From: a virus
Taxonomy: Duplodnaviria > Caudoviricetes
Virus record (IMG/VR): IMGVR_UViG_3300029288_000063
Span: 96,001-160,000 of that record
Length of the DNA stretch: 64,000 bases
Direction: 5' to 3' (one strand)
Shown: positions 5,524 to 28,084 of the stretch, piece after piece
Layout: each line of letters opens with the position of its first letter
Position numbering within the stretch: the first letter of the stretch is position 1
Translations under genes and position numbers: made by a program
Notes under the pieces: model-generated
What the model was told of the DNA's origin: nothing
Databases searched by the model: none
Seen by the model: the letters and a program-made list of their open reading frames with translations, nothing else

Positions 5524-7512
5524 ATGGGGACGCAAACGCACAAGAATCATGGGTTGAATAAAGATATGGTGGAGCAGTTATATCTTCGAGACGGGTTGAG
5601 TGATTCGGAGATTGGTTCGAGGTTTGGGTTGACTGGTGAGGGTGTTGCGTACTTCAGAAGAAAGTACGGCATCAAAACGATTTCTCAGTCTGATAGGATA
5701 TCTATCAGGGCAAGAAAGATCGGACTGATGGAGCTTTCTGTGGTTTCTGATGATGAGTTGATTCGGTTATATGATAAGCATGGGATGGTTACTCTTGGGA
5801 GGATGTTTGGGTGCAGCAAAATTCCAATCCGAGAAAAACTGCGCCGTCTAGGGGTTTGCATAAAAACGAAGCAAGATAGGACGGTAAGCGGGCATCCGGA
5901 CAGCCTGTCCCTGATGCAGCAGGAGGTGTTGATTGGGTCGCTGCTTGGAGATGGATGCCTCGTTGTGAACAACCTCGGGGATGCTGCCCATTTCCAAGAG
6001 ATGCATTCGGCAGCTCAGAGGCGATATCTGGAGTGGAAGCACGATGTGTTCATGCCTTTCTCCAAAAGGATTCACAAAGAGGATAAGGTGTTGGACGATG
6101 GGAGGGAATCGAAGGGTTTTGGTTTTAAGACATGTGTTCATCCGTTGTTTGTTCGGTTCTATGATATGTTTTATGGGGGAGCCAAAAAGCATCTTCCAGA
6201 TGGCTTGATGAGGAATATCTCGCCACTGAGTTTAGCGGTCTGGTATATGGACGATGGCTGTCTTTCTGATCAAAATAAGGACGGAGTATTCACGATAGCC
6301 TCTGGGTTTTGTAAAGAATCTGTTGAGGTTATTGCTGATTCGCTTAATGATCGGTTTCAGTTTGATATTGAAGTTCGCGAAGTAGATAGTGTGTCTGTTC
6401 TTGTTTTTCATAACAAGCAGAAATTCTTCGATGTTATTGGTAGGCACATTGTTCCGTCGATGGCATATAAGGTTCCTTTGAGTTTGAGGTTTTCCATGCC
6501 TCATATTCGGAATCCGAAGTTGTATGGGTTGCCAAACAAACTTTCTCCTGCGGAGGTTGCGAATCCATCTGAAGGACTGTTGGATGATCTTGTTGAGTTT
6601 TGGCAGGTTGCAGGGTTTCCTTTTCCAAGCGTTCCGAAGAAAGACAAGAGGTTGAGCGAGATAGAAGCGGTCAGAAATTCCAAGATAGAGCTTTCAGAAG
6701 TAGTTGGGTCTGGATTCTCTTCTGGCTGTGGGTTGTGTCTGTCGTTCTTCGAGAATGTTTGGTCGGTGAAACGGCATGGGCAAAAAAGCCCAGAGGATGT
6801 GTTTTACGATAAGGCTCTCTTGAGGCATGCTATCCGTGACTGCTTGAAGCATCGTGGTGGGTGTCGGGAGTCGGAATTGCGTTCTGAGCTTCGAACGTTT
6901 GGAGGGGTCCAAACGTTTCGTCCGGTTGTCGCAAGGGCAATTTATGATCGCTATTGCCCGGTTGGCGGGCGAGTTCTTGATCCCTGTTCTGGTTGGGGAG
7001 GGCGATTGCTTGGGTTCTATGCGTCCGTTGTGTCGGAGTATATCGGGGTTGATGCGAATCCAGATACCGTGAAGGGGCTGAAACATATGCGGTGTTTGTT
7101 GGGTCGGGATGTTGCGGGTAAGTCTGTTGATATTAAATATGCCGCTTTTGAGGACTTGAAACTTGATGGATCATTTGATGTCGTCTTTACGTCGCCTCCG
7201 TATTTCTGTAAAGAGTTGTACGGGGACGATGAGTTTCAGAGTTATGTCCGGTATGGCAAATACAACGATTGGCGGGATGGATTTTTGAAGCCTCTTGTTG
7301 AGAAGTCCGTTTCCGTTTTGAAGCGTGGAGGTTTTTTGATACTCAATGTTGCGGATGTTCGGGTTGGTGGTGATGTTTTCCCACTTGTCGAAGACACACG
7401 CTCGCTGATGAAGTCTGTTATAGGGCTGTTTGCGGAACACAACATGGAGTTTCTGAGTCCATATGGCGGGAAGACAAGGTTTGAACCAATTCTCGTTGGT
7501 CGGAAGGATTGA
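5524..7512 (+). CDS. HTH + LAGLIDADG endonuclease + DNA amino-methyltransferase fusion
   Basis: LIGSLLGDG and LAVWYMDDG motifs; C-terminal VLDPCSGWGG (motif I) and TSPPY (motif IV). Confidence 0.8.
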   Translation: MGTQTHKNHGLNKDMVEQLYLRDGLSDSEIGSRFGLTGEGVAYFRRKYGIKTISQSDRISIRARKIGLMELSVVSDDELIRLYDKHGMVTLGRMFGCSKIPIREKLRRLGVCIKTKQDRTVSGHPDSLSLMQQEVLIGSLLGDGCLVVNNLGDAAHFQEMHSAAQRRYLEWKHDVFMPFSKRIHKEDKVLDDGRESKGFGFKTCVHPLFVRFYDMFYGGAKKHLPDGLMRNISPLSLAVWYMDDGCLSDQNKDGVFTIASGFCKESVEVIADSLNDRFQFDIEVREVDSVSVLVFHNKQKFFDVIGRHIVPSMAYKVPLSLRFSMPHIRNPKLYGLPNKLSPAEVANPSEGLLDDLVEFWQVAGFPFPSVPKKDKRLSEIEAVRNSKIELSEVVGSGFSSGCGLCLSFFENVWSVKRHGQKSPEDVFYDKALLRHAIRDCLKHRGGCRESELRSELRTFGGVQTFRPVVARAIYDRYCPVGGRVLDPCSGWGGRLLGFYASVVSEYIGVDANPDTVKGLKHMRCLLGRDVAGKSVDIKYAAFEDLKLDGSFDVVFTSPPYFCKELYGDDEFQSYVRYGKYNDWRDGFLKPLVEKSVSVLKRGGFLILNVADVRVGGDVFPLVEDTRSLMKSVIGLFAEHNMEFLSPYGGKTRFEPILVGRKD

Positions 7513-8988: not shown

Positions 8989-9780
8989 ATGAATGTGTCT
9001 GTTGAACTTGTTCGTGTCGCCCGGTTGTTGTGTGGCGAAAAGACTGTTGAGGTTGATGGTGGGAAAGATGTCCGCCATCAACTTCAGTCTATTCAGCGTG
9101 CCGGTGATGTTGCGACGTTTATGTACCAGAAGAAGGACGGAACGTCGCGCAAGGTCCACGTTAAACCGACGTCTGTATTTGGCGATAAGTTCAAAGCTGT
9201 TGACCTTGATGCGGCGGGTGCAGAGAAGTTGTTTTTGATGAGCGGCGTGCAGCCGTTGGCGTCGAGTCATGCACCGGCGGTTCCGGTTGTTCATGAGCCG
9301 AAGAAGTTCAAGTTTCAAGACAAGGTGCTTATGGACAATGATATTTCCCGGTCATTGCATGGACTGGTAAAAAAGGGCGGCGCGTGGGCGTCCGAGCGGC
9401 AGCGGGATTTCATTCTCGGGAAGATTGCTCGGGATGGTGATTCTGCAAGAAGGTTGTTGCCGCGAGGTGTGTTTGGTTTGATAGGGAGAGGTGGAGTTTT
9501 GAGCGGTTGGGAGTCGACAGGTGATGGGTTTTCGAGCTGCTGGTTGTTCCGGGTTGACGATGTTGGTGTTGTTGACAAGATTTTAATTTGGCAAAAAACA
9601 ACCCCGATGGACCGTGAGCAAGCGGCGTATGAGCAGGCGATGGAAGACCTGTATGATGATATGGGTGGTCGTCCGGACCGCTATATGGTTGAAGAGCTTA
9701 AGTCGCATTATTCCCAACATGCGCGGAGTTGGTCGGGTCAACAAAAAGGTGGTACGAAAGTAAAATGGAGTCGTATGTGA
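8989..9780 (+). CDS. hypothetical, putative internal virion protein
   Basis: VSVELVRVAR N-terminal motif. Confidence 0.55.
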   Translation: MNVSVELVRVARLLCGEKTVEVDGGKDVRHQLQSIQRAGDVATFMYQKKDGTSRKVHVKPTSVFGDKFKAVDLDAAGAEKLFLMSGVQPLASSHAPAVPVVHEPKKFKFQDKVLMDNDISRSLHGLVKKGGAWASERQRDFILGKIARDGDSARRLLPRGVFGLIGRGGVLSGWESTGDGFSSCWLFRVDDVGVVDKILIWQKTTPMDREQAAYEQAMEDLYDDMGGRPDRYMVEELKSHYSQHARSWSGQQKGGTKVKWSRM

Positions 9781-9782
9781 TT

Positions 9783-9827
9783 TTTTTTCCAGATTTTTGT
9801 TGCACCCTCGATGCTTGGTTGTATAAT
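9783..9827 (+). promoter_or_regulatory. sigma70-like promoter heading tRNA block 1
   Basis: TTGCAC-16-TATAAT; first 21 nt identical to 27692-27712. Confidence 0.7.
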
Positions 9828-9877
9828 CTGTTTGAAATCGCCCATTGTGAGGGCGAACTTGTAGTGGAGAAAACAAA

Positions 9878-10006
9878 GTGCTTACTTTCCTGACCACCAC
9901 ATCATCGAACGGATTCTCGATGTCCCTCAACTGCGGTAATAAGCGCAGTCAGAGGCAAGGGCATATTACGTGCAAAATGCCCGGTGGTGGAAAGACGGAG
10001 ACCTGA
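9878..10006 (+). CDS. attenuator leader peptide 1 (42 aa)
   Basis: GGAG RBS, GTG start; 3' end pairs with the terminator 5' arm; codons match block-1 tRNAs. Confidence 0.75.
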   Translation: MLTFLTTTSSNGFSMSLNCGNKRSQRQGHITCKMPGGGKTET

Positions 10007-10073
10007 CGTAGTAGAGGGTTCTCATAAATGTCTTCCCGCCGCCGGAGCTTAAAAGTTCCGGCGGTTTTGTTTT
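9981..10073 (+). promoter_or_regulatory. antiterminator/terminator pair of attenuator 1
   Basis: 9981-9997 pairs with 10029-10045 (16/17 incl. GU); alternative terminator 10039-10048/10055-10064 plus T-tract. Confidence 0.75.
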
Positions 10074-10084
10074 GGGGGTGTGTC

Positions 10085-10264
10085 ATGCGGGAGTATGTTT
10101 TCACTGTTCGGGTTCGCCTTGAGGCGTTTGATGATGTAGAGGTTCGTCAACGTCTTGAAGAAGTTCGTAAGGCGGCATCCGGCGAAGTGGTAGAGGGAAT
10201 GAGTAGCGAGGTGTCCTTGCAAGAGGTTTTCAAAAACAAGGCTCCGAGGAAGTTGGTTCTTTAG
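10085..10264 (+). CDS. small hypothetical protein
   Basis: GGGGG RBS-like, 59 aa. Confidence 0.5.
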   Translation: MREYVFTVRVRLEAFDDVEVRQRLEEVRKAASGEVVEGMSSEVSLQEVFKNKAPRKLVL

Positions 10265-10350
10265 TCGCGGTGAGGTTTGGTTCGGGTGGTTGCGGTCCGC
10301 GCAGCGATAACCGTCCGAAAGAAAACTATACGGGCAAAGTTCCCGTGGAT

Positions 10351-10362
10351 GGTCTTTGACAA
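10351..10362 (+). promoter_or_regulatory. boxA antitermination site
   Basis: GGTCTTTGACAA, rrn boxA-like; repeated at 27959. Confidence 0.65.
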
Positions 10363-10396
10363 TCGAAGGAAAGTAGTGTACGCCGAAAAAAGCCCC

Positions 10397-10442
10397 CACG
10401 GGAAGGGGGCGTGATTGGCTATTCCCCCTTCCCGTGTTTTTT
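10397..10442 (+). terminator. terminator-like hairpin before first tRNA
   Basis: 13-bp perfect stem plus T-tract. Confidence 0.65.
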
Positions 10443-10454
10443 CTGTTTTGAACT

Positions 10455-10529
10455 GGGCCGGTAGCACAGTGGTAGTGCAGCGGATTCTTAATCCGAAGGT
10501 CGAGGGTTCAAATCCCTCCCAGCCCACCA
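10455..10529 (+). tRNA. tRNA-Lys(CTT)
   Basis: Cloverleaf, CCA. Confidence 0.92.
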
Positions 10530-10532
10530 AAC

Positions 10533-10608
10533 GGACGCGTAGCTCAGTAGGCAGAGCATCTGCCTTTTAAGCAGGTGGTCGTGGGTTCGATTCCCGCCGC
10601 GTCTACCA
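10533..10608 (+). tRNA. tRNA-Lys(TTT)
   Basis: Cloverleaf, CCA. Confidence 0.92.
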
Positions 10609-10611
10609 AAT

Positions 10612-10688
10612 GGGTATGTAGCTCAATTGCGTTGAGCATCCGGTTCTTACCCGGAAGGTTGGAGGTTCGAGTCCTCTCACACCTACCA
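10612..10688 (+). tRNA. tRNA-Lys(CTT), atypical D-loop
   Basis: Cloverleaf, loop TT-CTT-AC, CCA. Confidence 0.8.
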
Positions 10689-10689
10689 T

Positions 10690-10763
10690 TGGCGAGTCAT
10701 ATAATGGTATTATGCGCGGTTGTTACCCGCGTCATGGGGGTTCGACACCCTCCTCGCCAGCCA
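10690..10763 (+). tRNA. tRNA-Asn(GTT), divergent
   Basis: Cloverleaf, loop TT-GTT-AC, CCA. Confidence 0.8.
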
Positions 10764-10777
10764 TTTTTTTGACGCAT

Positions 10778-10854
10778 CCGGTGGTAGCTCAGTTGGTAGA
10801 GCATCTCTCTGATAAGGAGAAGGTTCGAAGGTTCAAGTCCTTCTCACCGGACCA
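10778..10854 (+). tRNA. tRNA-Ile(GAT)
   Basis: Cloverleaf, CCA. Confidence 0.9.
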
Positions 10855-10857
10855 AAT

Positions 10858-10933
10858 GTGCCCGTAGCACAACGGATAAGTGTATAAGGCTACGAACCTT
10901 AAGATGGGGGTTCAATTCCCTCCGGGCATACCA
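10858..10933 (+). tRNA. tRNA-Arg(ACG)
   Basis: Cloverleaf, CCA. Confidence 0.9.
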
Positions 10934-10985
10934 TTTTGAAAATCAAAGTCGCGAGACTTGTATAATAGTAACGATGGGTTTTTAT

Positions 10986-11094
10986 CAGCACGCTTCAGAC
11001 ATGGGTTACTTCTTTTCTCATACAAAAGACCTGACGGTTCGACTCCGTCGTTGGGTGGCCCCGGTAACGTCGCCTGTGTCGCTTTTTGGTGCTG
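10986..11094 (+). ncRNA. YrlA-like Y RNA, copy 1
   Basis: CACGCTTCAG..GGGTTACTTC..T-arm..TTTTGGTG frame. Confidence 0.65.
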
Positions 11095-11106
11095 GTTTTT
11101 CGGTTT

Positions 11107-11247
11107 GCGTCACACTTCAGGATGGACATACTTCTGACGCTTAATAGCCGGCTGCGGGTTCGATTCCCGTCGGTCAACTTCGGTTGGCTGTTGCTCATGG
11201 TTGAGCCGTTTGTTCGGTTGAGCCGTTCGTTCGACTTTTGGTGACGC
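11107..11247 (+). ncRNA. YrlA-like Y RNA, copy 2
   Basis: Same frame; T-arm precedes capped acceptor and D-like arm. Confidence 0.65.
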
Positions 11248-11258
11248 TTTTGTATTGC

Positions 11259-11332
11259 GACGGAGGAGTTGGGTTCGAGTCCCGACCGGAAGCCCATACG
11301 GGATTCCGTGGCGTAACAGGCAGCGTGCCGTC
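11259..11332 (+). ncRNA. permuted tRNA-like module without the long closing stem
   Basis: GACGG/CCGTC closing; T-arm, loop-capped acceptor, D-arm order. Confidence 0.55.
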
Positions 11333-11344
11333 ATCTTGTTTTTT

Positions 11345-11506
11345 TCCACACGCTTCAGCGATGGGTTACTTCCATGCTAAGGACGAGGTCGCAGGTTCGA
11401 ATCCTGCTCCCCCAACCCTTGCCCCTGTGATTCTGCGGGGGTATGGGCTGGGGGATGGCTCAGCGGTAGAGCGCGTAAACTAGCCTGTTGCGACTTTTGG
11501 TGTGGA
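11345..11506 (+). ncRNA. YrlA-like Y RNA, copy 3
   Basis: tRNA 3' half, hairpin, then tRNA 5' half inside the conserved stem. Confidence 0.75.
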
Positions 11507-11508
11507 TT

Positions 11509-11697
11509 TTATATTCTGTAGGCGATGTGGTGTCCGAGGCGTCGGAAGTATGATGCCATGCCGCAGACCGACTTTCTTGTGTCGAGGTCGAAGATTTCGG
11601 CGAGGAGGTCGAGGCTTTCGTTTGGAAACCATTCTGCGAAGATGGCGATTTCGTTTTGGTTCCATGTTGCGTGTTTGGTGCGTATTGCTGTTGCCAT
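11509..11697 (-). CDS. small putative DNA-binding protein
   Basis: AAGGAG RBS on minus strand; W-x-x-x-E helical pattern. Confidence 0.5.
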   Translation of the reverse strand: MATAIRTKHATWNQNEIAIFAEWFPNESLDLLAEIFDLDTRKSVCGMASYFRRLGHHIAYRI

Positions 11698-11775
11698 GAT
11701 ATTCTCCTTGAAAGGTGTGAGTTTCAGTATTTTATCCTACCATGTGTGTTTTGTAAAATATCTTGCTAAAATAAT

Positions 11776-11990
11776 GCCTCGGTGGCCTAACGGATAAGAC
11801 ACGACCCTCATGTCCTCGTAGCACAACGGATAGTGCATGCGGCTCCGAACCGCAAAATCCATGTTCGATTCATGGCGAGGATACCATTTTGTGGTATGGT
11901 TTCACGGTAAAGGAGTTCTCGTGAGAAGTCGTCCGTCTAGTGCAACTGCTGTAGGTCGTCATGTAGGTTCGATTTCTATCCGGGGTCCCA
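11776..11990 (+). pseudogene. tRNA-Arg split at the anticodon (halves 11776-11809 and 11952-11990)
   Basis: Halves complement in acceptor and anticodon stems. Confidence 0.7.
11812..11886 (+). tRNA. tRNA-Arg(CCG), nested in the split tRNA
   Basis: Cloverleaf, CCA. Confidence 0.88.
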
Positions 11991-12029
11991 AAAAAAGATT
12001 CGAAGAAGGTTCCAGTTTTTTCAAATATC

Positions 12030-12570
12030 CTCGATAGTGTGGTGTAGAATAGAACGAAAGGATTTTGACAAGCTACTGCGGTGTAAGTGCCGCCTCGGGT
12101 TGTGAAAAGGTCGGTCCAATCAACCGACCCAAGCGAACGGTTCGAGTCCGTCCAAGTTGGCAAGTAAAGTCGGCTGATTACCGAAAACACTTGTCGGGTT
12201 GGGTTCCCTCGGGTGAGGGCGAAATCGCCAAACCGACTGTTTTGTTCTTTGAAAACCACCGACAATTCGCCTAATGGGTTACGTCATCGGTGCCACCATC
12301 ACTGATGTACGTGTAAAACGCATAAGGCATCCCTAGTGAGTTGTCAACCGAGTCTTGTATGGTCGGCCGTTATATGGGATAGGTGGGTTTCATCGTTGTC
12401 GGTATACGATGAATTTAAGATTGGTGCCTCGTGGGATGTACGTTTGGCGCAAAATCGGGGTCTGCGGTTCGAGTCCGCAGTCGAAGAACCCGGAAACGGG
12501 AAAGGAATACCCCGGTGGGTGTAGCGGAGACAAATAGCCGGTAGCCAGCGTGGCGAACAAGCATCCCGTT
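12030..12570 (+). ncRNA. unassigned structured RNA region
   Basis: No credible ORF; many stems and T-loop-like GGTTCGAGTCC motifs. Confidence 0.4.
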
Positions 12571-12581
12571 TTGAAGTTTTT

Positions 12582-12647
12582 TTCGCACGCTTCTGTTGTG
12601 GGTTACTTCCTTTTGACGAAAATACCCATAACAACTTTTGGTGCGAA
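12582..12647 (+). ncRNA. minimal Y-RNA-like stem, copy 4
   Basis: Conserved frame without tRNA module. Confidence 0.55.
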
Positions 12648-12857
12648 TGTTCTTTGAAAACCACCGATGCACGGAAATAGCGTGTAGGAGCGACTCGGTC
12701 GACCCCCGTCGATTATGTTGCTTTGCCCCCAGTACCCCAAGTTACATGCTGAGCTGTGCGTCAACCGTGTCCTTGGTGTTGCGTCCCGCCCTTCGTGACG
12801 CCAAATGATAGGTGGGGTTCCTCGGTGGTCGGTGTGCCGGGGAGTTTTTTTTGAGTT

Positions 12858-13065
12858 CTTTGAAATCTGCTCTTGGACTGTAGTAGGAAGAACCAGCGAC
12901 ATCAATGAGAGGTCAATGCCGAACATGTCGTGGTGTAATGTAGCATAGCCACCATTGGGTGGAAGGTTCTTGTCGAGTCTTGACGAACAACGGCTTCCGA
13001 AAACACAGGGACATATCGCGGTCGCATGCAACCGTTGATGTGCTTGCCAAGGGTAGATTTCAGGG
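12858..13065 (+). ncRNA. rod-shaped ncRNA (6S-like candidate)
   Basis: 16-bp terminal stem, internal bubbles, inner stems. Confidence 0.4.
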
Positions 13066-13071
13066 AATTTT

Positions 13072-13136
13072 ATTCGCACTCTTCAGTGACGGGATACTTC
13101 TCATACAAGCGACCTGTTGCGATTCTTGGTGCGAAT
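13072..13136 (+). ncRNA. minimal Y-RNA-like stem, copy 5
   Basis: Conserved frame without tRNA module. Confidence 0.55.
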
Positions 13137-13186
13137 TTTGATTTCCCACGCTGACGGGTTGGCGTCCAGTGGGGTTTTGCAAACAT

Positions 13187-13263
13187 ACGCCCGTAGCTCA
13201 GTTGGATAGAGCGTCGGTTTCCTAAACCGAAGGGCAGCAGTTCAAATCTGCTCGGGTGTACCA
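13187..13263 (+). tRNA. tRNA-Arg(CCT)
   Basis: Cloverleaf, CCA. Confidence 0.9.
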
Positions 13264-13272
13264 AAATTTAAT

Positions 13273-13298
13273 GCGCCAGTAGCTCAGTGGTAGAGCAC
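13273..13298 (+). pseudogene. tRNA 5'-half remnant
   Basis: Acceptor strand plus D-arm only. Confidence 0.5.
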
Positions 13299-13326
13299 AA
13301 TAGAGGCGCTGTTTGGCTTAATAAAA

Positions 13327-13401
13327 GCGGGCATAGCCTAGTGGTCAGGCACCACCTTGCCAAGGTGGGTCACGCCGGTTCGACTCCGGTTGCCCGCTCC
13401 A
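13327..13401 (+). tRNA. tRNA-Gly(GCC)
   Basis: Cloverleaf, CCA. Confidence 0.9.
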
Positions 13402-13423
13402 ATATTGAAGTTTTTTGAAGCAT

Positions 13424-13497
13424 GGTGCATGAACCCAAATGGCGCGGGAACTGGCTGTGAACCAGTTGTTAGCGGGTTCGAATCCCGTCTTGCACCC
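13424..13497 (+). tRNA. tRNA-His(GTG)
   Basis: G-1, GTG anticodon; CCA not contiguous. Confidence 0.8.
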
Positions 13498-13620
13498 GGT
13501 CGACAAGGAGAAGCCTCCACGTGGCTCGGCTGGTAATCACCTAACGGTGAGCCAATGTCTCCTGATTTATTATGCCGGTTATACAATCGAGGAAAGGTTG
13601 TGACGTATTGCACCCCAAAT

Positions 13621-13696
13621 TCCCCTCTAGCTCAATCGGTAGAGCGTCTGGCTGTTAACCAGTAGGTTGCAGGTTCGAGTCCTGCGGGGGGAGCCA
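13621..13696 (+). tRNA. tRNA-Asn(GTT)
   Basis: Cloverleaf, CCA. Confidence 0.92.
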
Positions 13697-13699
13697 AAT

Positions 13700-13791
13700 G
13701 GAACGGTGGCAGAGAGGCTTATTGCACCGGTTTGCTAAATCGGAGGGCATCGTAAGGTGTCCCGTGGGTTCGAATCCCACCCGTTCCTCCA
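13700..13791 (+). tRNA. tRNA-Ser(GCT)
   Basis: Long variable arm, CCA. Confidence 0.9.
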
Positions 13792-13923
13792 TTCGATTCG
13801 GTGTATAATGAGTTGTCAGTCTCATGGAAACAAAAGACTCCAAGATAGTCTGTGATGCCGGGAGGAGTGCTTGGAGATGACAAAAACAAAGAAGCGAAAG
13901 TATGAAAGTTACCTTGAGTTTTT

Positions 13924-14013
13924 GGAGGGTTGGTCGAGTCTGGTTTATGGCACTGGTTTTGAAAACCAGAGACGTGAAAGCGTCCGGGGGTTCGAATCCC
14001 TCACCCTCCGCCA
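13924..14013 (+). tRNA. tRNA-Ser(TGA)
   Basis: Long variable arm, CCA. Confidence 0.9.
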
Positions 14014-14034
14014 AGTTTAAGGGGTTCTCAAACC

Positions 14035-14346
14035 ATGAGTGATAAAAAAGACCTTGGTGTTTTCGAAGACGGAGAGTTGGTTCCGATTCAGCCTGTTTGT
14101 AGTGGGCTGACAAGGTGTTGTCGGTGCAATGTGGAGTTGACGCCCGAGAACAATTCTGGTTGGGAGGTTTTTGTTTCGCCAACAAGAACAGCACCAGTTT
14201 GTAAAGAGTGCAATGTTGAGAGATGTAGCGTGTGCGGTGCCCCGATGACAAAAGAAAACTGGGGTGCCTTCTTGAAGGTCTCCGACGATACTCTTATGAT
14301 GTTTTGCAAGGGTTGCTACGAGGTTGAAAAAAGATTTAAGGGGTGA
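14035..14346 (+). CDS. Cys-rich hypothetical protein with internal duplication
   Basis: Two CxxC...T(P/K)EN..CxxC units. Confidence 0.55.
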   Translation: MSDKKDLGVFEDGELVPIQPVCSGLTRCCRCNVELTPENNSGWEVFVSPTRTAPVCKECNVERCSVCGAPMTKENWGAFLKVSDDTLMMFCKGCYEVEKRFKG

Positions 14347-14433
14347 CCGTTGTTTTGGGGTTCGTTGTAACACCTCTCACAAAAAAAAAGAATCAAACCC
14401 CACTTTTAGGAGAACCAATGAGCGTAAATTGAA

Positions 14434-14509
14434 GGACCTATAGCTCAGTGGTCAGAGCGGGCGGCTCATAACCGTCTGGTCGAAGGTTCAATCCCTTCTG
14501 GGTCCACCA
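14434..14509 (+). tRNA. tRNA(CAT), Ile2-like
   Basis: Cloverleaf; body resembles lysidine tRNA-Ile2. Confidence 0.8.
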
Positions 14510-14529
14510 ATAATCAGAGAGGGTTTTTC

Positions 14530-14853
14530 GTGTGGTGGCATTATGCGTTGTGGGTTCCGACTGTCGTTGTGTATTACGTTGGCTATTCGTGGCTGAGTAA
14601 GCAAAACAACGATATAGGCGGCAAGTGGTTCTGGTTCATGTTCGCCTATGGCGCGGCTTGCCCGCTTTGGCTGATTGTTTCCCGCATATCGAAAAATCTT
14701 TTATTTGATGGCGTCTTATATGACAACCTGATGTTTTTGACGTATGTCGGGGCGATGATATTTCTCGGGGCGCATGCGAGGATGACCGCGCACCAGTGGG
14801 TTGGACTTGGGTTAGTGGTGTTGGGTTCGGTCTTGCTTCGCTGGGAATTGTGA
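14530..14853 (+). CDS. small multi-pass membrane protein (SMR/DMT-like)
   Basis: About 4 TM segments, 107 aa. Confidence 0.5.
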   Translation: MWWHYALWVPTVVVYYVGYSWLSKQNNDIGGKWFWFMFAYGAACPLWLIVSRISKNLLFDGVLYDNLMFLTYVGAMIFLGAHARMTAHQWVGLGLVVLGSVLLRWEL

Positions 14854-14858
14854 AATCT

Positions 14859-14946
14859 GGAGACGTGTGATAATGGTATTCAGCCTGCCTCGAAAGCAGG
14901 TGCTCCAGCAATGGAGTTGGGGGTTCGAGTCCCTCCGTCTCCGCCA
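14859..14946 (+). tRNA. tRNA-Ser(CGA)
   Basis: Long variable arm, CCA. Confidence 0.88.
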
Positions 14947-14953
14947 AACACAA

Positions 14954-15042
14954 GGAGAGGTTGCCTAATTGGTAAGGCACCGCATTGGAAGTGCGGCGTG
15001 GTGATGAGTCATGTGCAGGTTCGAACCCTGTCCTCTCCGCCA
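14954..15042 (+). tRNA. tRNA-Ser(GGA)
   Basis: Long variable arm, CCA. Confidence 0.88.
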
Positions 15043-15202
15043 AATTTATAATCGCCTATGGTCGGGCGTTGGGGGTGCCATTAGAAACGCCAGCATATGG
15101 CTGTGCAAGCGTTTCTGACGGTGTCTCGGTTTGACAGTACCAAGCAGCCTCCCAGTGGCGTCAGACGGGCACGGTGCGAATCGTGGCGAATGCTTGGGAC
15201 CT

Positions 15203-15277
15203 GCCGACAAAGCATAGATGGCGATGCACCGGTTTCGTAAACCGGAGAGGTGGGTTCAAGTCCCTCTGTCGGCTCCA
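15203..15277 (+). tRNA. tRNA-Thr(CGT)
   Basis: Cloverleaf, CCA. Confidence 0.85.
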
Positions 15278-15329
15278 TATTTATGTAATAGTTGTTGTTG
15301 TATAGAGGTGGTTTTCAACGGTGAAAAAT

Positions 15330-15404
15330 GCCTCCGTAGCACAGCGGATAGTGCACCGGATTTCTAATCCGGCTACAGGGGTTCGATTCCCTTCGGGGGT
15401 GCCA
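15330..15404 (+). tRNA. tRNA-Arg(TCT)
   Basis: Cloverleaf, CCA. Confidence 0.9.
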
Positions 15405-15492
15405 AAAATGATTGATGCAACTTTGCGTCATTGGTTCTGTTCCTCCTTCATGTGCGCGGGCGGTGAGCGCCCGCCTTTGGAGGAGGCATACC

Positions 15493-15804
15493 ATGCAAGA
15501 GAAGGTGAAAGAAAAAAGTCGTCGTAGGCGGAATGATGTTGCTCGGATGAAAGAGCGTGCGCGTCGTGTTGTTTGTGGGAACGAACCGGCTCGTGGGTTT
15601 GTAATGTATAACCTCGATGGTTCGTTGGTTTCCCGCGAGGAGTGGGTTGAGGATTGTGCCGTTCGTTGCGCGAATAATATGGCAAAATGTTCGTGTGCAA
15701 TGTGTGGAAATCCTCGCCATCGGAAGTATAGTAAAGGGTCGGAACGTTTAACCATGCAGGAACGGCGACAACTACAAGACGGGGACTTATACGAGGAAGA
15801 ATGA
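15493..15804 (+). CDS. basic hypothetical protein (CSCxxCGNPR)
   Basis: GGAGG RBS; Zn-like motif. Confidence 0.6.
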   Translation: MQEKVKEKSRRRRNDVARMKERARRVVCGNEPARGFVMYNLDGSLVSREEWVEDCAVRCANNMAKCSCAMCGNPRHRKYSKGSERLTMQERRQLQDGDLYEEE

Positions 15805-16025
15805 TGTCTACCGAAAAGAAAGATCGTCACGCCCCGCCGCCATTAGGGTTGATTGCGTTGGTCGTGTTGGTGCCGATTGTAATTCTTATCGGAATTGCAG
15901 GGTTTGTCGGGTGGCTGTCTGTCCGTCTTGGTTTTGTGGAATGGTATCTTGGTCCGGTTGTCGGTATCGCTGTGGATGCCATTCTGTTGGGGATTCTTTG
16001 GTTGATGAAAAAGATGCGGGCGTAG
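15801..16025 (+). CDS. small 2-TM membrane protein
   Basis: Hydrophobic; coupled to previous gene. Confidence 0.5.
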   Translation: MMSTEKKDRHAPPPLGLIALVVLVPIVILIGIAGFVGWLSVRLGFVEWYLGPVVGIAVDAILLGILWLMKKMRA

Positions 16026-16089
16026 CTCAATGGCAGAGTGCCAGCTTCCCAAGCTGGTTATGAGGGTTCGATTCCCTTCGCCTGCTCCA
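16016..16089 (+). tRNA. tRNA-Gly(CCC)
   Basis: Cloverleaf, CCA. Confidence 0.92.
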
Positions 16090-16373
16090 AATTTGGCGGG
16101 GGGCGTATTATGGATTCGATTCAAGCCGCTATTTCACGTTTGTTTGTTTTGGTAGAAAAAGCAGAATCCAACCAAGAAGACATTTCGGTAAGCCGATATG
16201 TATGTCGGTTGTGCGGTGAAAGTCGACAGTCACTTTGCGAGTGTATAGATCACATTGTTGGTCTGCATTCTGAAAGGCTGAATGAGGTTCGCAACGCTGT
16301 AGATGTGATATGTAAGCGGGTGTAGCTCAATGGTAGAGCGCCAGCCGTATTAGAAAGGATTTGGGATAGATTA

Positions 16374-16447
16374 GCGCCTATGGTGTAGTGGCCGCATCTT
16401 TGCCTTCCAAGCAAAGGGTCCGTGTTCAAATCACGGTAGGCGCTCCA
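16374..16447 (+). tRNA. tRNA-Gly(TCC), nested
   Basis: Cloverleaf, CCA. Confidence 0.88.
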
Positions 16448-16522
16448 AACCAATAAATTCTTTATATTCGACCCGCTGTTTTGGAACCCGTAATTGGGTT
16501 CCAAAACAGGAGGGGGGTCGAC

Positions 16523-17185
16523 ATGAAGAGTGATGAACGACAAGAGGCAAGAAAACTCAGGGGACAGGGATTATCTGTCAAAGAAATAACAAGGAGAGTC
16601 GGAGTCGCAAAGTCGTCAGTGAGTCGCTGGGTCAGAGACATCGAGCTTACTGACGAACAAAAAATGAACCTCCGACCATGCACAGTTGCTTTTGGAATCA
16701 ATCGATTAAGGTATTTTTCTGAACTTCGGGACTCATACAGAGAAGTAGGGAGAGACCAAGCCAAGAAAAACAACCTTTTGCATGCAATGGGGTGCATGCT
16801 CTACTGGGCAGAAGGATGGCACACAAACAATCGGAACTGTATGAAGTTTTCAAACTCAAGTGTTCCGATGATGAAATTGTTTCTGAAGTTCCTGCGGAAT
16901 GAGATGTCTGTAAAAGATAATGATGTCATCATCAAGATACATTGTTATACAGACAAAAGGAGCGCAAGCGACATTGAATCGCACTGGCTTAACGAACTCG
17001 GTCTTCCGCAAAACTGTTTGAGGAAAACGGTGGCAGACAAAAGGCCGGGGTGTACGCAGAACAAACGCAACAACATTCTGGAATGGGGAACATGCCATCT
17101 GATTATACATGACGTGAGAGTCGTTCAAGGCATCTACGGCGCAATCGAGGAGTATGGGAAATTCAGGAATGGTGCATGGGATTGA
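16523..17185 (+). CDS. HTH + LAGLIDADG-like putative homing endonuclease
   Basis: N-terminal HTH; GCMLYWAEG..FSNS motif; A-rich relative to flanks. Confidence 0.6.
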   Translation: MKSDERQEARKLRGQGLSVKEITRRVGVAKSSVSRWVRDIELTDEQKMNLRPCTVAFGINRLRYFSELRDSYREVGRDQAKKNNLLHAMGCMLYWAEGWHTNNRNCMKFSNSSVPMMKLFLKFLRNEMSVKDNDVIIKIHCYTDKRSASDIESHWLNELGLPQNCLRKTVADKRPGCTQNKRNNILEWGTCHLIIHDVRVVQGIYGAIEEYGKFRNGAWD

Positions 17186-17247
17186 GCCAAGCTGGTTATG
17201 AGGGTTCGATTCCCTTCACCCGCTCCAAATTTGGAAGGTGGTGAGAC

Positions 17248-17475
17248 GTGGACAGGGAACACTTAAAATCTTTGATCGAATCACTGAAATCCATCAACCT
17301 CGACGAGTTTGACAGTATATCTGACGATGAGCTTCAAAAGAGGCTTGATAAGGCTCGTGCGTGTAATCCGGAAGGAATGGTGGCGTACGAGAAAATGTTG
17401 AGCGAAATTGACATTGATGAACTCGGACAGGACATCGGTTGTGAGTTGAGGGACGACGTGACAGATATGGTTTGA
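17248..17475 (+). CDS. small acidic hypothetical protein
   Basis: RBS-like GGTGG, GTG start. Confidence 0.45.
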   Translation: MDREHLKSLIESLKSINLDEFDSISDDELQKRLDKARACNPEGMVAYEKMLSEIDIDELGQDIGCELRDDVTDMV

Positions 17476-17708
17476 GTTTTTTTGGGGAAAGTGAGGGGGC
17501 AACAAGTGTCGGCACAGGAAGGTGTTTGTTGTGTTGTGGCGTTTCCGCATTCCGCAGAGTGTAAGGGTTGTGGGAAGTCGTTCAAAAAGAGAAGTCGTTT
17601 TCATCTTTATTGCAACAGATGTAATAAAAAGGTTTCACGAACGCCTCGGTTTGGATGTGGGACGTTTACAAGACGCCATTCTTGTCCTGATGAAGAAATT
17701 AAATAAAC

Positions 17709-17895
17709 GGCGGCAGAGCCTCGGTGGTCGGGGGACGGTGTGAAAAGAAGTCCAATATGGGAAATACAAAAAGAAAGTCTTGAAGAGATTATCTCTTTGT
17801 CGGCTTCCGTGTCAGAGGTTTTGCGGCGATTGGGGATGAAAACAACGTGCGGTGGAACATATCGAACGCTGATGCGAAGGATAAAAGAAGAAATA
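17709..17895 (+). pseudogene. tRNA-Cys 5' half plus truncated HNH-family N-terminus
   Basis: 17740-17895 peptide resembles the N-terminus of HNH 30061. Confidence 0.55.
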
Positions 17896-17896
17896 A

Positions 17897-17972
17897 GGCG
17901 AGCGAACCCATGCGGCATGGGGACGGACTGCAAACCCGTTAAACTCTGGTTCGACTCCAGCGCTCGCTTCCA
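17897..17972 (+). tRNA. tRNA-Cys(GCA)
   Basis: Cloverleaf, U73, CCA. Confidence 0.8.
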
Positions 17973-17985
17973 TAAAGGGACGGTA

Positions 17986-18531
17986 ATGTACCCTGAGCAT
18001 CTTTTACCAGTCTTGAAGGCGATGTTGGTCGAGTTGAATTCGACTCGGCTTGAGGTTTTGCTTGTACCTGCGGAAGACCAAAGGCATTGTGGTCATAAAG
18101 TGCGTGTGGTAGAATCGAACAACCCGTGGTGGTATCGGGAAATTTGTTCCCGGTATCCGTCGCGGTCAAAGTCGCATAGTCGTTGTCCGTGGAAGCACAC
18201 AAGGGTGAAAAGGCGAAGGATTTTGGAAGCCCTTGAAAAAATGTCTGCCGATATTTGCTCGAAAAGTTCCTTTGTGGACGATATCCTTGAGGTGGCGGAA
18301 GAAGAGTTGTGCCGATGGGAAGAGGAACGCATAGAGTGGGAGGAACGGTCTACACACTACACCGTGGCGCAATTGGTGGCGCACGACGCTCTGAACGTCG
18401 GGGTTGAAGGTTCGAGTCCTTCCGGTGTAACCATTACCCCGTCGTCTAACGGTAGGACACAAGACTTTGACTCTTGTAACGATGGTTCGAATCCATCCGG
18501 GGTAACCAAATTTGAAGGAGTTCCGTGGTGA
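17986..18531 (+). CDS. hypothetical protein; tail runs through two tRNA-Gln genes
   Basis: AAGGGA RBS, ATG 17986. Confidence 0.45.
   Translation: MYPEHLLPVLKAMLVELNSTRLEVLLVPAEDQRHCGHKVRVVESNNPWWYREICSRYPSRSKSHSRCPWKHTRVKRRRILEALEKMSADICSKSSFVDDILEVAEEELCRWEEERIEWEERSTHYTVAQLVAHDALNVGVEGSSPSGVTITPSSNGRTQDFDSCNDGSNPSGVTKFEGVPW
18358..18433 (+). tRNA. tRNA-Gln(CTG)
   Basis: Cloverleaf, CCA. Confidence 0.88.
18435..18508 (+). tRNA. tRNA-Gln(TTG)
   Basis: Cloverleaf, CCA. Confidence 0.9.
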
Positions 18532-18830
18532 AGATGTATATTCTGATAAAAAATGACTTGGCTGTTGGTCATTCGGTGTTGGCTGCCGCGCACGCTTCGT
18601 TGGCGTGCTATCTGAAGTTCCAGAACGACGAAAGAATGCGCCAGTGGGTGTCAGGCGTGTTTTACAAGGTTGTCTGTGTGGTGTCGCCTGAAGAGTTTGA
18701 GAGGGCGAAGGAGGTCGAGGACAATGTCGTCATGACGGAGTCGTCCCTTGGTGGTGCGGAAGTTGCTGTTGCGTTTTGTCCGAGAGAAGAATGGCCGAAG
18801 ATGTTCAGGTTTCTTCGGCTTTTGAAATAG
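18525..18830 (+). CDS. peptidyl-tRNA hydrolase, Pth2-like
   Basis: KMYILIKNDL..AAHAS..W..KVVC pattern. Confidence 0.7.
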   Translation: MVKMYILIKNDLAVGHSVLAAAHASLACYLKFQNDERMRQWVSGVFYKVVCVVSPEEFERAKEVEDNVVMTESSLGGAEVAVAFCPREEWPKMFRFLRLLK

Positions 18831-18833
18831 AAT

Positions 18834-18910
18834 GGTGGTATAGCTTAGTTGGCCGAAAGCACCGGCTTCATAAGCCGGTATCGGTGGTTCGAATCCACCT
18901 ACCACTACCA
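18834..18910 (+). tRNA. tRNA-Met(CAT), elongator-like
   Basis: Cloverleaf, CCA. Confidence 0.88.
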
Positions 18911-18916
18911 TAATTT

Positions 18917-19008
18917 TGCGGGGGAGTGAAACGGATTTCCCGAAAGGGAATAATCATTCAAGCCCCATAAGCTTGAGATAGTGGGTTCGACTCCCATCCC
19001 CGCGTCCA
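18917..19008 (+). tRNA. atypical tRNA(CAT) with hairpin inserted in the D-loop
   Basis: TTCCC-GAAA-GGGAA in D-loop; C33; CCA. Confidence 0.65.
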
Positions 19009-19029
19009 AATTGCAACGGAGGTTGTATA

Positions 19030-19266
19030 ATGGGTCATATGACGAAGGCGTCTGATTGTATTTGTTGCGTTTGTCATAAGGAAAAGGCTGTTGCCTTTTG
19101 GCCTATGGTTGATATCGACATTCCTGCCCATCCGTATTGTAAGAAGTGTTTGGATGAGGCACAGTTGAAGGTGATGATTCAGTTGGCAGAAACGGACTTT
19201 TATGGGTTGCCGAAGAAAACAAATTCACCGAAGAAGGCGAAAGCAAAGAAAAAGCGAGGTGGTTGA
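19030..19266 (+). CDS. small Zn-finger-like protein
   Basis: GGAGG RBS; CxxC..CxxC. Confidence 0.55.
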   Translation: MGHMTKASDCICCVCHKEKAVAFWPMVDIDIPAHPYCKKCLDEAQLKVMIQLAETDFYGLPKKTNSPKKAKAKKKRGG

Positions 19267-19359
19267 TGAAGTGGCTATTTAATATTGTTTTCCCGTTTGG
19301 GATTCCGTATTGATATCGCCAGCATAGCTCAATTGGTAGAGCACCTGCTTTGTTGTAAC

Positions 19360-19433
19360 GCTGGCATAGTTCAATGATAGAATAGTTGTCTTGTAAGCAT
19401 CAGACGATGGTTTGATTCCATCTGCCAGCTCCA
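19360..19433 (+). tRNA. tRNA-Thr(TGT), nested, divergent
   Basis: Cloverleaf with TTT T-loop and one anticodon-stem mismatch; CCA. Confidence 0.7.
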
Positions 19434-19506
19434 ACAAACAGAAACGCAGACCAAGTGACCAATTCTTTTATGGTCTCCATTCGAATAGCGTAGTCGGCTA
19501 TTTTGG

Positions 19507-20199
19507 ATGGAGGACAAGAGAATGTTCAAGTGCGAAAAGTGTGGTAAGGAGTTTGACAACGAGAGGTCGTTTAGTGGGCACAAAGGTGCCTGCGGGAAGA
19601 AAAAAGAGTGTCCTGTTTGTTGTCGGATGATAAGTGTTTCGAATTTTATTGCGCATGTGAAGTCGCATGAAAACGACAAGGCTTGTCCAGCGTGTGGTGG
19701 GGTGGTTCATGGTCGTGGACGCTTTTGCTCGAAAAGTTGTGCTGCCTCGGTGAACAATGTTGGTGTTGTTCGCAATGGGGTAAAAAAGAAAGACGCGTTT
19801 TGTTTAACGTGTGGAAAGATTTTGGTTCGACGTCAGGTTAAATATTGTTCAAATCATTGCCAACAAGAAAAGAAATATAGAGAATACATAGGTCGGTGGT
19901 TGATTGGAAAAGAAACAGGCAACATGGATGGTTGTATGAATATATCAAATTATGTTCGACGTTGGCTATACGAAACGAGGGGGAAAAGGTGTGAGGGGTG
20001 CGGGTGGGCGAGAAAACATTCGATGGACGGTTCGATTCCGATTCAAGTCGAGCACATTGATGGTAATGCTCAAAACACGACACCTGAAAACTTGAGGATA
20101 TTGTGTCCGAGTTGCCATAGTTTAACGTTGACCTTTGGAAACAGAAACAAGGGAAAGGGTCGATCAAAGAGGCGATCAAAGAGGTGTTCAAAAGAGTAA
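19507..20199 (+). CDS. Zn-finger HNH homing endonuclease
   Basis: Multiple CxxC; EHIDGN..N..NLRILCPSCH. Confidence 0.85.
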   Translation: MEDKRMFKCEKCGKEFDNERSFSGHKGACGKKKECPVCCRMISVSNFIAHVKSHENDKACPACGGVVHGRGRFCSKSCAASVNNVGVVRNGVKKKDAFCLTCGKILVRRQVKYCSNHCQQEKKYREYIGRWLIGKETGNMDGCMNISNYVRRWLYETRGKRCEGCGWARKHSMDGSIPIQVEHIDGNAQNTTPENLRILCPSCHSLTLTFGNRNKGKGRSKRRSKRCSKE

Positions 20200-20309
20200 G
20201 CAGGCGGTTGGGGGTTCGAGTCCCTCTGCTGGCTCCATAAAGAAGCTACTTTCCTTCATGAAAACGCCGATATGGCTCAGGAGGTACTCTACCTACTTGG
20301 ACAACAAAT

Positions 20310-20383
20310 GCTGGCATAGTTCAGTGGTAAAACAGATTCTTGGTAAGAATCAGACGAGGGTTCGATTCCCCCTGCCAGCTCCA
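20310..20383 (+). tRNA. tRNA-Thr(GGT)
   Basis: Cloverleaf, CCA; same lineage as nested Thr(TGT). Confidence 0.85.
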
Positions 20384-20517
20384 AATTGGACTGTTATGAA
20401 AAGATTGCATCATGACCCGGAAAACGGTATAAGTAAAAGGCAGTCGTTGTATGCCAAGAAGACCAGAGCTTGGCTCAGGGGTGTGATGTGTGTTTTGAAA
20501 AAAAAAGGAGAAAATGA

Positions 20518-21021
20518 ATGAGGGTTATTGACGCTCCCGAGTCGTTGTCAGATTTACCGCGCCCGGCAGTGTTCTTGGCGGGCGGGATTACCGGGTGTCC
20601 GGATTGGCAAAATAAGGTTATCGCAGGTCTGTCGGACCTTGACTTTGGGTGTGTCCTGAACCCGCGTCGGGCGAATTTTCCGATTCACGACCCCAATGCG
20701 GCGCGGGAACAAATCACTTGGGAGTTCAACGCCTTGCATAAGGCTGATTTGTTCTCGATGTGGTTTTGCAACACGGAGTCAGACCTACCGATTTGTTTTT
20801 ACGAGTTGGGTCGGTATGTCGCGATTCGGCAGGTAAACGTGCAGCTTGACCGTGTTCTTATTGGTGTTGAGACGGGGTTTAAGCGGTCACAGGATGTGTA
20901 TATTCAAATGGAATTGGTAAACAAGGGAATTTCGGACAACATTTTCTCATCGTTGGACGATTATATAGTGGCGCTTCGTGAGTTGGTGTTGAACTTTGTC
21001 TCGAACACAGTGTTCGAGTAA
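20518..21021 (+). CDS. nucleoside 2-deoxyribosyltransferase-like protein
   Basis: VFLAGGI..DWQ..NPRR..QITWE..YELG. Confidence 0.7.
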   Translation: MRVIDAPESLSDLPRPAVFLAGGITGCPDWQNKVIAGLSDLDFGCVLNPRRANFPIHDPNAAREQITWEFNALHKADLFSMWFCNTESDLPICFYELGRYVAIRQVNVQLDRVLIGVETGFKRSQDVYIQMELVNKGISDNIFSSLDDYIVALRELVLNFVSNTVFE

Positions 21022-21110
21022 ACTGGAGGGTTCTACCATGTTTAGCCTTTTGTGTTCGGAAGTCTTGGTGTTTCGGTGTTGAACTAAAACCAGAGAAAGG
21101 AGGATAACCG

Positions 21111-21620: not shown

Positions 21621-22037
21621 CGTGTGTGTGGTTTCGTAGATCAATAACACCCGTCGTGCCGTGTGGCGACGGGTGTTGTTTTAGGAGCCATCATGATTTT
21701 TTCGTCTCCAATAACCTGTCCACCCGAAACGACTGGTTCGGTTTCATACACTGTTTATTCTGGAGGGACAACATCGACGACCGAAACGACGTTTGTGGCG
21801 AGCAGTGATTGTTCGTGTTCGGCGGGTTGTTCGCGTTGTGCGGATTCGCATGAATATGTTCTGACTGTCTTAATGCCAGTTGAGGGTTATGAGGTTCCAG
21901 TCTTACCGAAAACAAAACACGATTCGTATAAAGGTCATCGTGCGGGGCATCCACGTAAAGTGCGGTCGTGGAACAAGATACACAAGCCATTCGGTGGTTA
22001 TGGATTCTTCCGTGGTTAAATGCGAAGAATCCATCTC

Positions 22038-22111
22038 GGGGCGTGCGTCCCGGTTGACCGGATGGGTCTTATAAACTCGTTGGCAGGGTTCAACTCCTTG
22101 ACGCCCTACCA
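22038..22111 (+). tRNA. tRNA-Ile(TAT), atypical
   Basis: CT-TAT-AA loop, T-arm, CCA; odd D-arm. Confidence 0.65.
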
Positions 22112-27736: not shown

Positions 27737-27773
27737 GGGTCATGTGTGGTAAATTACTTTTATGGAGTCTGTC

Positions 27774-28081: not shown

Positions 28082-28084
28082 AAT

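Follow-up and report, generated by a model that had tools for sequence, protein, structure and literature searches.

Short open reading frames ahead of two phage tRNA gene blocks as likely leader-peptide attenuators

Introduction

In the multivalent leader-peptide attenuators of enterobacterial amino-acid operons, a promoter-proximal short open reading frame (ORF) has codons that name several amino acids (Thr and Ile in the thr leader; Leu, Val and Ile in the ilvGMEDA leader), an intrinsic terminator lies past the ORF, a mutually exclusive antiterminator is set by ribosome position, and the pathway's own product feeds back negatively. This is the closest known logic to that of two units that we describe here in a 64,000-nucleotide stretch of phage DNA (the window: bases 96,001-160,000 of IMG/VR record IMGVR_UViG_3300029288_000063, a single-contig virus of 253,102 bases from a landfill metagenome assembly). 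Each unit stands ahead of a block of tRNA genes, and comparative evidence and folding models make it likely, in our judgement, that units 1 and 2 are ribosome-mediated (leader-peptide) transcription attenuators that gate blocks 1 and 2 upon slow decoding.

The units differ from the thr and ilv leaders in that the genes to be regulated are tRNAs and not biosynthetic enzymes, and in that a leader covers up to 21 tRNA species with about one codon each, as opposed to runs for two to three amino acids. Furthermore, the 5' strand of the putative antiterminator (region 2) is part of the ORF tail and precedes the stop codon instead of following it, an anti-antiterminator (1:2) pairing is weak or absent, and the units are phage-encoded, with two or more of them partitioning the genetic code. 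Neither in sequence nor by Rfam do the units resemble the thr and ilv leaders. The pheST operon, with its pheM leader, provides another parallel, since there too a leader-peptide attenuator acts on part of the translation apparatus and not on a biosynthetic pathway; however, its target is phenylalanyl-tRNA synthetase, with one amino acid sensed and a cellular genome, whereas here tRNA genes and many codons are concerned. T-box riboswitches likewise couple the state of a specific tRNA to the choice between terminator and antiterminator, but they bind uncharged tRNA directly through a specifier codon without translation, unlike the present units with their translatable ORFs. Rfam searches at the gathering threshold found tRNAs and the tmRNA only, with no T-box; a relaxed search of 9700-13300 (E up to 1) gave nothing relevant, and the covariance models for the Thr, His, Leu and Trp operon leader families had no match. 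Judged by sequence, the units belong to no described family, and the logic that they spell out is that of leader-peptide attenuation.

What phages have tRNA genes for, and how these are put to use, has been debated for decades, with codon compensation set against escape from tRNA-targeting defences. In the abstracts of two studies, phage tRNAs counter host tRNA-targeting defences, namely anticodon nucleases, and the loss of a single host tRNA species in infection appears as a real selective pressure (PMC10264068; PMC11464382). Those abstracts deal with the tRNAs themselves and contain no regulatory leader for phage tRNA genes. Full-text literature searches of incomplete coverage found no published leader-peptide control of tRNA genes.

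Results

A leader ORF matched to tRNA block 1

The window carries 55 tRNA genes and a tmRNA, on the + strand throughout, and the tRNA set can read all 61 sense codons. Two blocks are defined by the positions of the paralogous units ahead of them, and thus independently of codon reading; they have no amino acid in common, CAT tRNAs excepted:

10455-22111, + strand: tRNA block 1, 27 genes with ORFs interspersed; 11 amino acids (Lys, Asn, Ile, Arg, Gly, His, Ser, Met, Thr, Cys, Gln)
27997-36878, + strand: tRNA block 2, 28 genes; 9 amino acids (Tyr, Ala, Val, Glu, Leu, Phe, Asp, Trp, Pro) plus one Met-CAT

Unit 1 (9783-10077) stands ahead of block 1 and consists of the following parts:

9783-9827, + strand: promoter region, with a T-rich stretch, the conserved motif TTCCAGATTTTTGTTGC (9787-9803), a -35-like TTGCAC (9800-9805), a 16-nt spacer and a -10 TATAAT (9822-9827)
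9866-9869, + strand: Shine-Dalgarno-like GGAG, read from the sequence, 8 nt 5' of the GTG
9878-10006, + strand: leader ORF 1, GTG start, 42 codons, TGA stop
9893-9979, + strand: sensing core 1, codons 6-34
9884-9899, + strand: region 1, a candidate anti-antiterminator with partner 9983-9994, taken from a 231-nt fold
9978-9997, + strand: region 2, the putative antiterminator 5' strand, codons 34-40 in the ORF tail
10029-10049, + strand: region 3, the putative antiterminator 3' strand and terminator 5' arm
10038-10077, + strand: intrinsic terminator, stem 10038-10065 and T-tract 10066-10077 (TTTGTTTTGG)

The -35 is weak, matching the consensus at three of six positions, which is why a simple promoter scanner does not list this promoter. 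The terminator stem begins 31 nt past the stop codon and has 12 pairs, 8 of them G-C (-22.3 kcal/mol). The leader peptide belongs to no Pfam or PHROG family, and its translation in the initial annotation is correct, save that the GTG start stands for fMet.

The same annotation had proposed that nearly all core codons are read by block-1 tRNAs, and our recount agrees: 27 of the 29 are served by the block, which leaves only TTC (codon 13) and CTC (codon 17). All 11 block-1 amino acids are represented, as are 21 of the 24 distinct block-1 anticodons (the readers of CGG, AGA and ATA are absent), and the peptide is indeed devoid of Ala, Asp, Tyr, Trp and internal Val. By itself the in-block count is not decisive, because 22 of the genome's 6,791 stop-to-stop ORFs, all six frames included, also attain 27/29. 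That number, together with neighbouring genes that are ORFans without homologs for comparison, speaks for a chance intergenic ORF whose position ahead of an ordinary operon-end terminator is accidental. The exceptional trait is diversity. We initially scored segments by simple set membership, but dropped this score because low-complexity repeats (collagen-like, PVAP) dominated it, and instead counted the distinct block anticodons per window of codons, with the length fixed beforehand as the number of anticodons plus five. With 21 distinct anticodons, leader 1 outranks every other one of the 237,162 windows in the six frames of the genome, the runner-up locus having 20, which a chance ORF would not explain. 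Given 27 in-block codons and the codon usage of the phage, at least 21 distinct anticodons are expected with P = 3e-4.

A paralogous unit with the complementary codon set

A second unit (27692-27930) stands ahead of block 2:

27692-27736, + strand: promoter region, paralog of 9783-9827, with TTGCGC, a 16-nt spacer and TATAGT
27774-27863, + strand: leader ORF 2, MNKFALLPVLPVFDAAAYEWLTAGRELCG, ATG start, GGAG 6 nt upstream
27783-27836: sensing core 2; 18 of 18 codons from block 2, all 9 block-2 amino acids, 15 of 20 anticodons
27837-27849, + strand: region 2 of unit 2, ACGGCGGGUAGGG, codons 22-26, complementary to the terminator 5' arm
27897-27930, + strand: intrinsic terminator, stem 27897-27918 with 7 G-C pairs and an 8-nt loop, TTTTTTGTTTTG; begins 33 nt past the leader stop codon

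The two units are paralogous at both ends. The 17-mer TTCCAGATTTTTGTTGC has exactly two copies in the 253 kb, one in unit 1 and one in unit 2 (at 27696), and the same is true of the 12-mer AAGTTCCGGCGG in the terminator 3' arm and of the 16-mer GGTCTTTGACAATCGA, each found once per unit. About 40 of 45 promoter-region positions are identical. Between promoter and terminator there is no alignment, and the leader ORFs are unrelated.

Nevertheless, leader 2 stands to block 2 as leader 1 does to block 1. Its run of 18 block-2 codons is the longest in the genome (the next has 15), and it is the genome maximum for distinct block-2 anticodons per 18 codons; with the 25-codon window set beforehand, one other locus equals it. 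Tested as two leaders against two blocks, the codon sets are complementary at Fisher p = 3e-6.

Leaders in relatives track their own arrays

The SNF2 helicase encoded in the window matches seven viral contigs at 55-76% identity. Of these we scanned five; tRNA genes occur in all of them and form arrays in four. In the closest relative, G003, the contig ends inside the tRNA array. The leader region has no DNA similarity in the five related records. In the three relatives whose array has its upstream region on the contig (SNF2 helicase 55-60% identical), each array comes after a promoter, then a short ORF, then a hairpin that has a T-tract (-11 to -22 kcal/mol; the simple terminator scanner misses these hairpins on the leader strand). 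The core was taken as the longest uninterrupted in-set run, with one out-of-set Leu admitted in G002:

G004: array Ser, Leu, Trp, Phe, Cys, Tyr; leader MNKLYSYFSCSSLWSLSGEHREGFIAL; core LYSYFSCSSLWSLS
G001: array Phe, Leu, Ser, Val, Asn, Cys, Tyr; leader MKQLLSVSLFNVSCYSNSNYWRGLL; core LLSVSLFNVSCYSNSNY
G002: array Glu, Lys, His, Met, Ile, Asp, Thr, Trp, Ala, Pro, Gly, Arg, Gln; leader MRLIHTGKEQKPMAGAIEDRPATWFSLFSVLFNQD; core RLIHTGKEQKPMAGAIEDRPATW

All 14 core codons of G004 are read by its array, covering 10 of 11 anticodons (binomial 6e-9), the 17 codons of the G001 core are restricted to the seven amino acids of that array, and the G002 core includes all 13 array amino acids and 17 of 19 anticodons. 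The leaders covary with the arrays even in detail: Val and Asn are present in both array and leader of G001 and absent from both in G004, and in G004 the Leu-UAA tRNA is located in another block and TTA is missing from the leader. By the diversity statistic, the G004 and G002 leaders are unique maxima of their genomes, whereas G001 ties at the maximum. When each of the five leaders is scored against each of the five blocks, its longest in-set run is invariably the one with its own block (14-21 codons, at most 10 elsewhere). The leader peptides have no sequence in common, the constraint being on codon sets only.

Unit 2 and three relatives with different tRNA sets show the pattern independently of leader 1, at combined binomial probabilities per core from 2e-3 down to 6e-9. 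These comparative data already contradict a chance ORF, an explanation to which we assign next to no weight.

The core of the promoter motif, AGATTTTTGTTGC, marks the leader promoters of units 1 and 2 and of G002; outside these, the six records contain only two matches, with one mismatch each and in unrelated contexts. G001 and G002 have the same tmRNA tag (AHLQNARVSTTSG), near-identical leader promoters and complementary tRNA sets (7 and 13 amino acids), and are probably two arrays of one phage species on different fragments.

Other searches for relatives gave little. No leader-region homologs were found by blastn against phage records. Peptide patterns from the upstream 263-aa protein were unmatched in viral contigs, and a protein search with it returned only itself; the HD-domain protein inside block 2, used as bait, brought up no relatives. 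Scans for the promoter and terminator motifs found none in viral contigs and eight matches in metagenome contigs, all in unrelated coding sequence. The sequencing runs listed for this DNA include none of RNA; in four DNA runs, cross-mapping tRNAs made up most of what matched, along with a few short contigs that were identical, and nothing was usable for the leaders. Among cultured phages the best match to the SNF2 helicase has only about 31% identity, so that there is no cultured relative; in the tRNA region of phage T5, the small ORFs are not spelled in the amino acids of the neighbouring tRNAs.

A shared geometry and a modelled switch

All five units present the same order: a promoter, then an ORF of 25-42 codons in which the sensing core is followed by a tail of 6-12 codons, then the stop codon, the terminator stem and the T-tract. 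The stop codon is separated from the terminator stem by 29-34 nt in every unit, and the terminator is at most 65 nt from the first tRNA in three of the five. In each, the ORF segment that best complements the terminator 5' arm lies in the tail, past the core (codons 34-40 of 43, 22-26 of 30, 18-28 of 28, 21-26 of 26 and 21-29 of 36). In unit 1, the pairing of 9981-9997 with 10029-10045 named in the initial annotation is borne out at 16 of 17 positions (3 G-U, 1 A-C mismatch), with a duplex energy of -31.3 kcal/mol (RNAduplex) against -19.4 +/- 3.0 for shuffled ORFs, none of 300 being as good. One other unit (-24.9 kcal/mol) is likewise unequalled in 300 shuffles, and the remaining three have p = 0.03, 0.08 and 0.27. 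The 3' strand 10029-10045 overlaps the intrinsic terminator stem 10038-10065, such that the pairing would sequester the terminator arm, as had been suggested.

For unit 1, the four-segment logic of the E. coli trp attenuator (1:2, 2:3, 3:4) can be drawn, and as in trpL a ribosome at the stop codon would block the antiterminator. The role of region 1 as an anti-antiterminator is uncertain: its duplex 9884-9899 with 9983-9994 (-17.9 kcal/mol, RNAduplex) is weaker than 2:3 and loses in the modelled truncated transcript. Because of this difference, an untranslated transcript is predicted to antiterminate and be read through, unlike the untranslated trp leader, which terminates via 1:2. The trp leader also differs in sensing a single amino acid.

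We modelled the ribosome as a 28-nt footprint on the transcript before the terminator 3' arm exists. In unit 1 the 5' arm is predicted to be paired with a probability of about 0.78 when the A site is at codons 2-29, and of 0.37-0.46 from codon 31 to the stop, which is consistent with the earlier proposal that a ribosome reaching the stop frees the terminator arm. With no ribosome, the truncated transcript would form the antiterminator (P = 0.79). In the same model the effect is partial for unit 2 and G001, where arm pairing drops in the tail codons, with unit 2 re-pairing when the ribosome is at the stop; G004 is flat, and G002 flat or unsupportive. G002 has a 27-bp antiterminator hairpin, with the ORF tail as its 5' strand, that is dominant even at equilibrium.

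Based on these results we can present a proposal for how unit 1 may work. A sigma-70-like promoter would start the transcript, the first feature of which is the 42-codon ORF, with roughly one codon in its core per downstream tRNA species. If any core codon is read slowly, the ribosome would lag in the core and leave the tail 9978-9997 free to pair with 10029-10049, sequestering the terminator 5' arm, so that the polymerase continues toward the tRNA genes. With fast decoding, the ribosome would be over the tail or at the stop, the terminator 10038-10065 would form and transcription would end. Since the tRNA products would relieve the stall, the circuit would amount to negative feedback on tRNA supply. 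We thus infer that the leader ORF is translated, that stalling drives the switch in structure, and that read-through reaches the tRNAs; the phage would then probably make a tRNA block only while ribosomes read the leader codons slowly.

The same modelled behaviour could be produced by a translation-coupled attenuator that reports general translation capacity or the stage of infection (ribosome availability, transcription-translation coupling). The prediction that a ribosome-free truncated transcript antiterminates fits it, as the default would be ON and any efficient translation would turn it OFF, and so does the low representation of each tRNA, at one or two codons. On this account the codon match would follow incidentally from a need for codons within the phage's own supply. 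However, the leaders are maxima of block-specific anticodon diversity beyond set membership (conditional P = 3e-4, 4e-3, 2e-2 and below 5e-5 across leaders), and complementary codon sets in the two leaders of one genome would be needless for a sensor of general capacity. We find such a general sensor improbable, at about one chance in ten, and the by-product account of the codon match equally so.

Extra elements between the attenuators and the tRNA genes

Between the unit 1 terminator and the first tRNA of block 1 there are further elements:

10085-10264, + strand: 59-aa ORF between the unit 1 attenuator and the tRNA block, with none in unit 2; Pfam and PHROG family searches were empty
10328-10366, + strand: conserved element made up of the hairpin CGGGCAAAGTTCCCG and GGTCTTTGACAATCGA, with its unit 2 copy at 27935-27974
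10397-10450, + strand: second terminator-shaped hairpin, a 13-bp stem (10397-10437) and the U-tract UUUUUUCUGUUUU

The relative G004 (about 9585-9605) has TCTTTGAAAATTGAA, which is similar to the GGTCTTTGACAATCGA element. In unit 2 this element scores as a promoter, TTGACA-16-AAGAAT, directly before tRNA-Tyr, whereas in unit 1 it has no -10 at the correct spacing. The second hairpin lies 18 nt before the first tRNA (tRNA-Lys), is overlapped by an alternative 6-bp hairpin (10392-10410) and has no unit 2 counterpart. No fitting promoter was found behind it, and it would be either leaky or separately controlled. A second leader serving it was ruled out, as no ORF ends at leader distance upstream.

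These elements bring in another explanation, that each unit is a self-contained small transcription unit that samples the tRNAs of its block and has a peptide or a released small RNA as its output, while the arrays use their own TTGACA promoter. The promoter-like element before tRNA-Tyr, the retention of GGTCTTTGACAATCGA in both units, the second hairpin ahead of block 1 and equilibrium folds that favour termination are all in keeping with it, and there is precedent in Sinorhizobium, where released attenuator RNAs and leader peptides have trans functions, according to the abstracts of two reports (PMC6614838; PMC7968998). It leaves unexplained, though, why the tail complements the terminator 5' arm in all five units and why the stop-to-terminator spacing is fixed. 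The peptides share no sequence, codon sets alone being constrained, the unit 1 TTGACA element lacks a usable -10, and in G001 the terminator abuts the first tRNA, which leaves no space for another promoter. We therefore regard an output of this kind as unlikely, if slightly less so than a general capacity sensor.

Neighbouring genes

An amber-suppressor tRNA (anticodon CTA, 25632-25706) lies between blocks 1 and 2. The gene at 26186-26512, 480 nt past it, has a strong GGAGG 8 nt before its ATG (26186) and an in-frame TAG as its third codon (26192-26194), and a mini-ORF at about 27141 (ATG AAG TAG ...) resembles it; these TAG-interrupted genes near the suppressor tRNA may be suppressor-dependent. 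Genome-wide TAG recoding is unsupported, as TAG is the normal stop in 91 of 439 long ORFs.

After tRNA-Arg(ACG), the stretch 10934-11480 looks like tRNA debris, with several T-arm-like GGTTCGA segments and the repeat CACGCTTCAG(A/C)CATGGGTTACTTC at about 10990 and 11350; ARAGORN called no tRNA in it, and Rfam gave weak matches only (YrlA-like, 31 bits, 11376-11484). At 5524-7512 a DNA methylase-like protein has a LAGLIDADG endonuclease domain fused or inserted. Two HNH endonuclease genes are situated between tRNA genes (19507-20199 and 21111-21620), a placement suggestive of mobile elements moving in the array. The tRNA region also encodes a hybrid histidine kinase of 723 aa (CHASE4, HisKA, HATPase_c and receiver domains; 23470-25641). 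Just 3' of block 2 are the tmRNA (37990-38334, tag ANDNVRLAA) and then an RNA ligase gene (39420-40586), a neighbourhood that suggests a tRNA-repair context.

Discussion

Our analysis supports the initial proposal of an attenuator ahead of block 1 through the paralogous unit 2, the covariation of leaders and arrays in relatives, the geometry shared by five units and the mask model of unit 1, so that leader-peptide attenuation is the likely reading of both units. Several observations weigh against it. Classical leaders have runs of codons, whereas these leaders have one or two codons per tRNA, which makes sensitivity to mild limitation doubtful; near-total loss of a tRNA would fit better. The complementarity of tail and arm alone is not significant in G004 (p = 0.27) and is marginal in unit 2 (p = 0.08), and the mask model does not discriminate for unit 2 and G004, as region 2 there falls about 16 nt short of the stop codon. 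In full-length equilibrium folds the terminator prevails for almost all positions of the ribosome, with little switching (G002 excepted), so that the switch must be kinetic, as is accepted for classical attenuators. The 59-aa ORF and the second strong terminator-shaped hairpin separate the unit 1 attenuator from the first tRNA, and block 1 itself is 12 kb long, with ORFs and more terminator-like sites inside. Given the promoter-like TTGACA-16-AAGAAT before the first tRNA of unit 2, the arrays may have a second, attenuator-independent input and perhaps do not depend on read-through alone. Finally, a further block in G004 (block B, Met...Leu-taa) has no detectable leader, the ORF directly upstream encoding a 107-aa protein.

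If the units are attenuators, one way in which they might be used is as a checklist, in which the loss of any single tRNA species stalls the ribosome at one codon and induces the whole replacement block. We put this forward tentatively, and somewhat doubt it ourselves. Possible triggers, named with the same reserve, would be a host anticodon nuclease or a phage-induced decay of host tRNAs. Were it true, huge phages would carry a self-tuning sensor of tRNA depletion, with the genetic code split among separately gated arrays, and as the partition of the arrays shifts in evolution, the leaders would follow.

More generally, if the attenuator reading is correct, these phages monitor how specific codons are decoded and produce tRNAs when they are needed, which would provide a direct handle on which tRNA shortage matters to them. 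The parts could be used as compact sensors of how fast particular codons are decoded and, being small, with sigma-70-like promoters and intrinsic terminators, should be amenable to study as reporter fusions in laboratory bacteria. Classical attenuation would reach beyond amino-acid biosynthesis to the tRNA genes themselves, would take in about twenty tRNA species where one to three amino acids had been the range, and would operate in viruses as well as in cells.

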